A stretch of 52,808 nt of DNA. Source: Candidatus Omnitrophota bacterium (GTDB taxonomy: Bacteria; Omnitrophota; Gorgyraeia; JAHJTE01). Location: NCBI GenBank assembly GCA_020058285.1, contig JAGVEL010000039.1, forward strand, positions 1-52,808, read 5' to 3'. The notes beneath the pieces were generated by a model. The model was not told where the DNA came from. It ran no database searches and saw only the letters and a program-made list of their open reading frames with translations. Position 1 is the stretch's first letter. Every line of letters starts with the position of its first letter. The position numbers and the translations under genes were made by a program. Of this stretch, positions 9,989 to 10,207 are shown in pieces.

Positions 9989-10207
9989 ATGAGGGCACAA
10001 TTTACGGAAACGTAAGTTGAACGTAAATTGTTTCGCCCGAATTTATCCAGCACTAATTTTGTAATCAGTCTGGATTTATAGATTCAAATTTGATAAAAAA
10101 TTACTTTATTAATTAACCCAATACGCTATCAAAATTAGTGCTGGGTTCAATTCGCACAATCGACTTAGCTCGCTGTAAGGATTGGCTCGCTAAGTCGAGT
10201 GCTCATT
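9986..10207. repeat. Four-way-junction intergenic element, copy 1
   Basis: AATGA | GGGC-ACAATTTACG..CGTAAATTGT-ttc-GCCC | GAATTTA-TCCAGCACTAATTTTG..CAAAATTAGTGCTGGG-TTCAATTC | GCAC-aa-TCGACTTAGC..GCTAAGTCGA-GTGC | TCATT; homologous to the elements at 21312 and 40930. Confidence 0.88.

Follow-up and report, generated by a model that had tools for sequence, protein, structure and literature searches.

A nuclease-linked three-hairpin repeat of Omnitrophota whose central loop occurs in both orientations

Introduction

The closest published system to the repeat described here is that of the Ssn proteins with their NTS/SRM repeats (Chenal et al. 2025, PMC11893778). As set out in that account, the gene for a small single-domain GIY-YIG protein (94 amino acids in SsnA of N. 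meningitidis) is bracketed by hairpin repeats, which are also dispersed as many gene-less intergenic copies and whose sequence classes track protein clades; its authors note a resemblance to insertion sequences and to BIMEs. The present family, from a Candidatus Omnitrophota bacterium, likewise links a small GIY-YIG protein, here of 77 amino acids, to hairpin repeats scattered as numerous copies lacking the gene (35 central hairpins and 79 arm matches; C21:555-935, L021-L047), and its stem classes too follow protein clades. It differs in that the SRM consensus HGTCWY...RNCYNB has no match on either strand of the genome (against 1-4 in five shuffles), in that the gene lies inside the loop of one long hairpin, itself nested between two further hairpins, and in that the repeats are placed precisely between a stop codon and a ribosome-binding site (RBS). 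The word 'Omnitroph' is absent from those supplementary files of PMC11893778 that were word-searched.

The REP/BIME elements taken up in the discussion of the same paper are extragenic palindromic units that alternate in orientation and combine with variable inner motifs into mosaics, and in enterobacteria and pseudomonads they are generally understood to lie between cistrons or 3' of genes in dozens of copies. A mosaic of this type is present here as well: one arm model matches both arms of the element, on opposite strands, and modules have been recombined between copies. The associated gene in this case encodes a GIY-YIG nuclease and the arms are of two classes, stop-side and start-side, whereas no Y1 transposase (RAYT / IS200-IS605; PF01797) was found in the 92.8% complete genome with a search that was positive in six of 14 reference genomes used as controls. 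Miniature inverted-repeat transposable elements (MITEs), such as the Correia elements of Neisseria, are short, non-autonomous, intergenic sequences with terminal inverted repeats that are co-transcribed with their neighbours. The arms of the present element serve as terminal inverted repeats in the same manner, but there is no consistent target-site duplication around AATGA...TCATT, no transposase was found, the sole coding relative carries a nuclease, and the modules reassort independently.

Finally, in the small inversions of plastid DNA (Kelchner and Wendel 1996, cited in PMC12371153) a loop between the halves of a short, perfect inverted repeat may lie either way round, as it does here, and the flips are described as recurrent, independent of phylogeny and made without a recombinase. 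Those inversions span 4-50 bp (PMC12371153), as against loops of 37-75 nt in the present case, where the hairpin is moreover part of a dispersed, nuclease-linked bacterial repeat family. Full-text searches of the literature found no description of the Omnitrophota family.

Results and discussion

Architecture of the repeat

The window analysed is a stretch of 52,808 nt (contig JAGVEL010000039.1 of assembly GCA_020058285.1), which is contig C3 of a source genome of 1,244,920 bases in 70 contigs, with 38.7% G+C and an estimated completeness of 92.8%. Positions 10046-10145, singled out in a preliminary description of this DNA, correspond to the middle one of three hairpins that together make up an intergenic DNA repeat. 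Each element consists of a stop-side (S) arm of the form TAAATGA-stem-GAATTT, a central CCC...GGG hairpin with a perfect stem of 12-19 bp, and a start-side (R) arm of the form AATTC-stem-TCATT. The window contains three copies, all given here on the + strand, each between housekeeping genes of the same strand as assigned from Pfam: a galT-like gene and GAPDH for copy 1, a GNAT acetyltransferase and an acyl-CoA dehydrogenase for copy 2, and hisI and trpE for copy 3.

In copy 1 the S arm hairpin (9988..10044; arm model E 6.3e-12) begins with a TAAATGA that overlaps the TAA stop (9986-9988; stop at -1) of the galT-like gene (8987-9985; Pfam GalP_UDP_transf). The left linker GAATTTAT (10039-10046) precedes the 5' half of the central stem, CCAGCACTAATTTTG (10047..10061), which forms a perfect stem of 15 bp with the 3' half (10130..10144) around an AT-rich loop of 68 nt (10062..10129). 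After the linker GTTCAATTC comes the R arm hairpin (10149..10207), matched by the arm model on the - strand and ending in TCATT; it is followed by GGAGGAGG and the start codon, at 10222, of the GAPDH gene (10222-11241; Pfam Gp_dh_N and Gp_dh_C). Upstream of this copy, 7932-8960 and 8987-9988 are tandem galT-like paralogues, detected as direct repeats D2 and D13 with 73-87% identity and a spacing of ~1050 nt.

Copy 3 is built in the same way. Its S arm (40932..40985) overlaps the TAA stop of hisI; the central hairpin (40986..41092) has the stem ACCCAGCACTAATTTT at 40986-41001 and its 3' half at 41077-41092, enclosing a loop of 75 nt (41002-41076); and the R arm (41094..41146), again with a TCATT end, leads to the ATG of trpE at 41149, where a Shine-Dalgarno sequence is not evident. 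Copy 2 has an S arm (21314..21368) 3' of the acetyltransferase gene, a central hairpin (21369..21422) with the stem ACCCCACACCCAG / CTGGGTGTGGGGT and a loop of only 28 nt, and a second arm of ambiguous class (21425..21477) that precedes the GTG start codon of the acyl-CoA dehydrogenase gene at 21491. The statement in the preliminary description that this copy carries a different core is borne out, in that the ACCCCACACCCAG stem occupies the equivalent place; CCCCACACCCAG is found within it at 21370-21381, with the complementary sequence at 21410-21421. In other genomes (L030-L033) GIY-YIG genes are enclosed by stems of this class.

The inverted repeat common to copies 1 and 3 is readily recovered. 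The 14-nt sequence CCAGCACTAATTTT occurs exactly at 10047-10060 (+), 10131-10144 (-), 40988-41001 (+) and 41077-41090 (-), and with up to two mismatches it gives five matches where 0.96 are expected, a number reached in none of 100 shuffles. When folded as single-stranded DNA, the elements yield -43.9 and -46.8 kcal/mol (z -7.6 and -8.4 against shuffles). Searched at gathering thresholds, Rfam gave no match anywhere in the window.

Orientation of the central loop

On global alignment, the loop of copy 1 matches the reverse complement of the loop of copy 3 with an identity of 0.81 (z 10.5), compared with 0.63 (z 2.2) when both are read directly, so that the two cores are homologous as reverse complements, as had been claimed. 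A repeat finder independently paired 10057-10103 with 41033-41079 as inverted arms of 47 nt (89% complementary), and paired the flanks of the two copies as direct repeats D1, D7 and D9. The break points fall within the inner inverted repeat or at its edge, again as previously proposed, and the flipped loops have diverged by 13-19%. As is shown below from gene context and from arm models, copies 1 and 3 are of the same polarity, and the loop is truly flipped within its frame.

To place this pair among its relatives, as the preliminary description had suggested, a search with eight stem seeds was made and returned 35 central hairpins in the genome, whose loop orientations were counted in the S-to-R frame. 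Both orientations are present in three loop families: that of CCAGCACTAATTTT (2:2; copy 1 and C51:5875 against copy 3 and C10:1499), that of CCAGCACTTATTTT (3:1; one on C9 and two on C35 against C40:7261) and the short CCCTCACCTTTT family (3:3). The long CCCTCACCTTTT family (3:0) and the CCCCACACCCAG family (2:0) are uniform. In a second genus of the same family of bacteria (genome G002), 18 distinct CCAGCACT modules were found, and two loop clusters are mixed: one of 12 modules divides 6:6, or 6:3 among the nine with clear polarity, and one of five divides 2:3. For this genome, and for the gene-bearing loci discussed below, the S and R models trained on arms of the source genome were reused; a simpler polarity heuristic disagreed with them at two weak G002 loci (L060 and L070), and the model-based counts are those given. 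Orientation is independent of loop relatedness in both genera. Copy 1 is closer to the flipped copy 3 (0.87) than to C51 (0.76), which lies the same way round, and the flipped C40 loop is 0.93 identical to that on C9. Since orientation does not follow relatedness, the flips recur.

A metagenome scan with an 18-nt loop motif returned 87 stretches. Among the 80 examined there were two family members, L091 and L127, both in the orientation of copy 3; the stem is missing from the remaining 78, which are chance matches, and no orthologous locus was found among the 80. Two central hairpins of the source genome are 'empty', having the same stems around loops of 3 nt (C39:14442-14470, loop gtg; C10:8272-8304, loop cta); these could be targets, or else products of excision or deletion. 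In run X1, six groundwater-metagenome contigs that match over 10060-10131 are further members of the family; their CCAGCACTAATTTT stems enclose unrelated loops of 14-21 nt, which means that in nature this stem hosts many different loops.

The nuclease gene in the central loop

Two observations bear on the nature of the element that the preliminary description had missed: the arms are mutually inverted, as discussed in a later section, and the same stem elsewhere encloses a gene for a GIY-YIG nuclease. At C21:627-857 of the source genome an ORF of 77 codons fills the loop of a CCAGCACTAATTTT stem exactly, with its ATG directly after the stem and its TAA overlapping it. The encoded protein (P0001) matches Pfam PF01541 (GIY-YIG) over residues 1-58 with E 8.8e-10 (39.2 bits against a cut-off of 22.6); it has no meaningful match in NCBIfam, and its best match by sequence in the PDB is 1zg2 (E 0.031). 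The locus (C21:555-935; L013/L017) is the sole full-length copy of this gene in the source genome, the other tblastn matches being weak and partial (C57, 1.3e-7; C70, 2e-3; C5, 0.1). Of 201 genomes sampled across the class, 61 contain homologues, and the nearest protein-atlas cluster is commonest in Omnitrophota.

At the homologous loci that were fetched, the gene lies within a CCC...GGG stem with an S arm on one side and an R arm on the other. Scoring covered 29 gene-bearing loci. Two arms could be recognised at 17 of them and fewer at the other 12; among the 17, the gene is in the sense orientation at 15, marginally antisense at one, whose flanks look sense by eye, and unclear at one. L033 and L037 belong to those with fewer than two recognisable arms on scoring, and L035 was unclear. 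L037 is the only one of the gene copies with internal stops whose arms can be read by eye, and it too looks sense because its stop-side arm is upstream. Stem classes track protein clades, with identities of 0.58-0.70 within a class and 0.44-0.52 between classes, but, given that gene and stem are joined on the same piece of DNA, this correspondence is by itself no proof of recognition.

The copies in the window lack the gene, their loops being occupied by AT-rich filler. The idea that such a loop is an internally deleted GIY-YIG gene is not supported: global alignments did not discriminate between orientations, and when 15 loops were compared with 28 gene sequences the best blastn scores were 17-33 bits, against a shuffled mean of 22.2, a 95th percentile of 26.9 and a maximum of 36.3.

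Origin of the loop inversion

The flip of copy 1 relative to copy 3 is most likely a fixed by-product of the perfect inverted-repeat stem, not a working switch. On the explanation that we prefer, and to which we would give about an even chance of being correct, the flagged sequence is the central hairpin of a nuclease-linked repeat whose gene-less loop has become fixed in inverted form through an inversion mediated by the stem. A perfect stem would allow the loop to invert without leaving a trace, whether by strand switching at a hairpin during replication or by recombination between the two halves of the stem. With no gene in the loop there would be no selection on its orientation, and both orientations would accumulate; loops bearing the gene would stay sense because they are longer, or because the gene needs read-through for its expression, or both. 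Stems of 14-19 bp are short for RecA-dependent recombination, and the two loop families without flips show that flipping is not uniform; both points count against this explanation. Small inversions of hairpin loops are established in plastid DNA, with no recombinase involved (PMC12371153). The direction of replication was also considered as a cause and was rejected for copies 1 and 3: GC skew is positive (0.04-0.20) over the whole window, so the two copies share their direction of replication as well as of transcription.

We infer the mechanism of inversion, and in most respects the data fit equally well with a re-copying in either direction. Here the central module would be mobile or convertible and would be copied, for instance through repair or gene conversion once the nuclease has cleaved the DNA, into a quasi-palindromic site between the arms (GAATTTAnCC / GGnTAAATTC); given that both the module ends and the site are palindromic, either orientation would result. 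Several observations are as this account would have them. One loop family is found between unrelated arms (copy 1 compared with C51, and copy 3 with the left arm at C10), central modules without arms exist in other genomes (for example L029, L043 and L049), the orientation ratios are near 1:1, and there are both the empty hairpins at C39:14442 and C10:8272 and the X1 contigs with the same stems around other short loops. Against it, no arm pair without a central hairpin was found, the shortest spacing, of 35 nt, being itself a hairpin; no transposase is present; and to our knowledge GIY-YIG nucleases do not ligate. Above all, random insertion should leave antisense copies of the gene, and gene-bearing modules are sense at 15 of the 17 scorable loci. 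It is because random insertion would not leave the gene-bearing loops, L037 included, in the sense orientation that inversion in place is favoured here, whereas length-dependent strand switching together with selection for read-through expression would give gene loops that are sense only. Of these two passive routes, re-copying is the less likely.

It is tempting to go further and to suggest that the central hairpin could be a self-contained selfish unit, belonging to a branch of GIY-YIG nuclease elements that spans the Omnitrophota and has yet to be described, in which cutting by the nuclease drives both copying and inversion. The nuclease gene would then ride in the loop of its own recognition hairpin, the two arm hairpins would constitute a 'landing pad' between stop codon and RBS, and cutting of the extruded hairpin at replication forks would lead to copying and to inversion of the loop. 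We regard this fuller scheme as speculative and, taken whole, improbable.

Arm hairpins and frame polarity

When a profile was built from the left arms of the three copies, it recovered the right arms as well, on the opposite strand. Left and right arms are thus mutual inverted repeats, and the element as a whole comes close to two-fold symmetry, which is broken only by the central loop and small features of the arms. An iterated genome search yielded 79 arm matches with E<0.01, comprising 30 convergent pairs and 19 solo arms. The arm stems covary, one pair column containing CG 31 times, AT 24 times and GC 17 times. S arms carry the upstream stop codon within the outer TAAATGA, have GAATTT or GAACTT as their inner linker, and possess a loop of the form GAAcg..AGTGA; R arms have a TCATT end followed by an RBS or a start codon, the linker GAATTA or GAATTG, and GCRC at the base of the stem. 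In an alignment of 78 arms the outer flank and inner linker also covary, as TAAAT...ATTTA in S and TTAAT...ATTAA in R, which means that the arm hairpin includes the stop-codon motif and that the linker difference between the classes is a paired change.

Some further features of the arms were noted. The arm hairpins at C60:11783-11855, C51:7443-7501 and C64:5596-5662 of the source genome contain within them a second, smaller and GC-rich palindrome, CGCCTGCCTGCCGGCAGGCAGGG, and a similar one, CCTGCCTGCCGGCAGGCAGG, occurs in the metagenome locus L127. At 41140-41151 of the window, and likewise at C39:14529 and C38:6220, the downstream start codon lies 1-4 nt past the TCATT of the R arm without a Shine-Dalgarno sequence (trpE, TCATTTAATG; also TCATTAAACATG), while other copies have TCATTAAAGGAGG. 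The end of the element may therefore supply or replace the translation-initiation region.

The close ties between arm classes and genes raise the question of whether the element acts as RNA, in the processing, stability or translational coupling of a polycistronic mRNA, with the loop a neutral spacer of irrelevant orientation. In keeping with such a role, the two classes are strongly associated, on the transcribed strand, with stop codons and with RBS or start codons respectively, the junction between TCATT and the RBS is conserved, and the arm stems covary. Covariation is predicted equally by DNA hairpins, however, there is no match in Rfam, some elements are reversed relative to their genes, and a connection with a nuclease gene speaks for action as DNA; the Ssn enzyme already characterised is described as having no action on RNA (PMC11893778). 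That RNA function accounts for the element has only a slim chance of being right; it is in any case compatible with stem-mediated inversion of the loop, for it concerns the arms and not the flip.

A second possibility is that the whole element was inserted in opposite directions at the two loci, and that the common polarity of the frames is an illusion created by the symmetry of the arms. The left arm of copy 1 does resemble the reverse complement of the right arm of copy 3 (0.79, z 9.8) at least as well as it resembles the left arm of copy 3 (0.73, z 9.6). Given that the two arms of every element are mutual inverted repeats, the arm markers by which the preliminary description had assigned a shared polarity are insufficient on their own, and that part of its argument does not stand, although the shared polarity itself is upheld by gene context and by the arm models. 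In copies 1 and 3 alike the left arm overlaps an upstream TAA and the right arm precedes the next start codon. Class models were trained on gene context alone, from 20 arms in stop context and 27 in start context, with 26 ambiguous arms left out and the six arms of the window held out; in leave-one-out classification 40 of the 47 were assigned correctly and seven wrongly. The scores of the held-out arms (S minus R) are +6.8 on the left and -28.9 on the right for copy 1, and +3.6, only weakly S-class, and -16.7 for copy 3, giving S...R for both, while copy 2 scores +11.1 for its S arm and +6.5 for its second arm, which is not R-class.

Other details point both ways. The right linker of copy 3 is GAATTT-like, as in S arms, and the arm classes are reversed relative to the genes at C40:7202, C44:5025 and C66:3522; with an S-class arm on the gene-start side at C40:7202 and at some other loci, frame polarity relative to genes is not absolute. 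In the element at C40:7202-7420 the S-class arm abuts a gene start and the R-class arm lies 3' of a terminator-like T-run, the frame being reversed relative to host transcription and the loop being in the majority orientation relative to transcription. On the other side, the left loops of copies 1 and 3 (GAAACGTAAGTTGAA and GAAACGCAAGTGA) match the S-class loop, the right loop of copy 3 (reverse complement GAGTGTTAACGA) matches the R class, the right arms of copies 1 and 3 resemble one another more (z 4.8) than the right arm of copy 1 resembles the reverse complement of the left arm of copy 3 (z 2.3), and the same flip is seen in four further loop families with clear polarity. Inversion of the entire element is thus very doubtful, and the loop alignment, the held-out models and the gene context together sustain the earlier claim of a core inverted within frames of the same polarity.

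Recombinases, promoters and read data

The cassette had also been described as modular and possibly invertible. Its modular character is supported, but the notion of an active, invertible cassette fares badly. The 92.8% complete genome contains no match to the serine recombinase family PF00239, and tyrosine recombinases (PF00589) are matched only twice, on contigs C45 and C68, away from the elements. Promoter-like sites number one and two in the two loops, where shuffles give 1.0 and 1.4, and none is shared. Five public sequencing runs were compared, the best share of sampled window words being 0.06. A 272-nt contig from run X4, with seven differences, is collinear with the window over 9923-10155 and has copy 1 in the same orientation; being independent, it makes an assembly artefact at this copy unlikely. 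Runs X1-X4 gave no reported strand-change joints on the window, at a cover too thin to exclude low-level switching. There is therefore no sign of an active switch, and a programmed one is unlikely: phase variation, in which the loop would flip reversibly in cells and alter expression of the downstream gene, could draw on the position of a short segment between inverted repeats just upstream of gene starts and on the near-1:1 ratios, which imply frequent flips on an evolutionary scale, but with the recombinase and promoter results as they are, with housekeeping genes downstream (GAPDH, trpE) and with flipped loops that differ by 13-19%, it is the least probable of the explanations considered.

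Conclusions

Hairpin repeats linked to small GIY-YIG nucleases were tied to a biochemical activity only in 2025 (PMC11893778). The Omnitrophota family comprises about 45 copies placed exactly between a stop codon and an RBS in a genome of 1.24 Mb. For annotators, the practical lesson is that 'cassettes' found as reverse complements within such repeats need not be switches. The mechanism by which the family spreads is constrained by three features of orientation, namely that it is free when the gene is absent, that it is sense when the gene is present (15 of 17), and that it is independent of loop relatedness. Were the selfish-unit scheme true, loop orientation in living populations would become random at a rate open to measurement, and the family would offer a natural system for the study of template-switch inversion and of homing through single-stranded DNA. 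The nuclease gene, for its part, probably depends on read-through from the host operon, and the orientation results taken together imply that it is the stems, and not the loop, which constitute the unit that matters.
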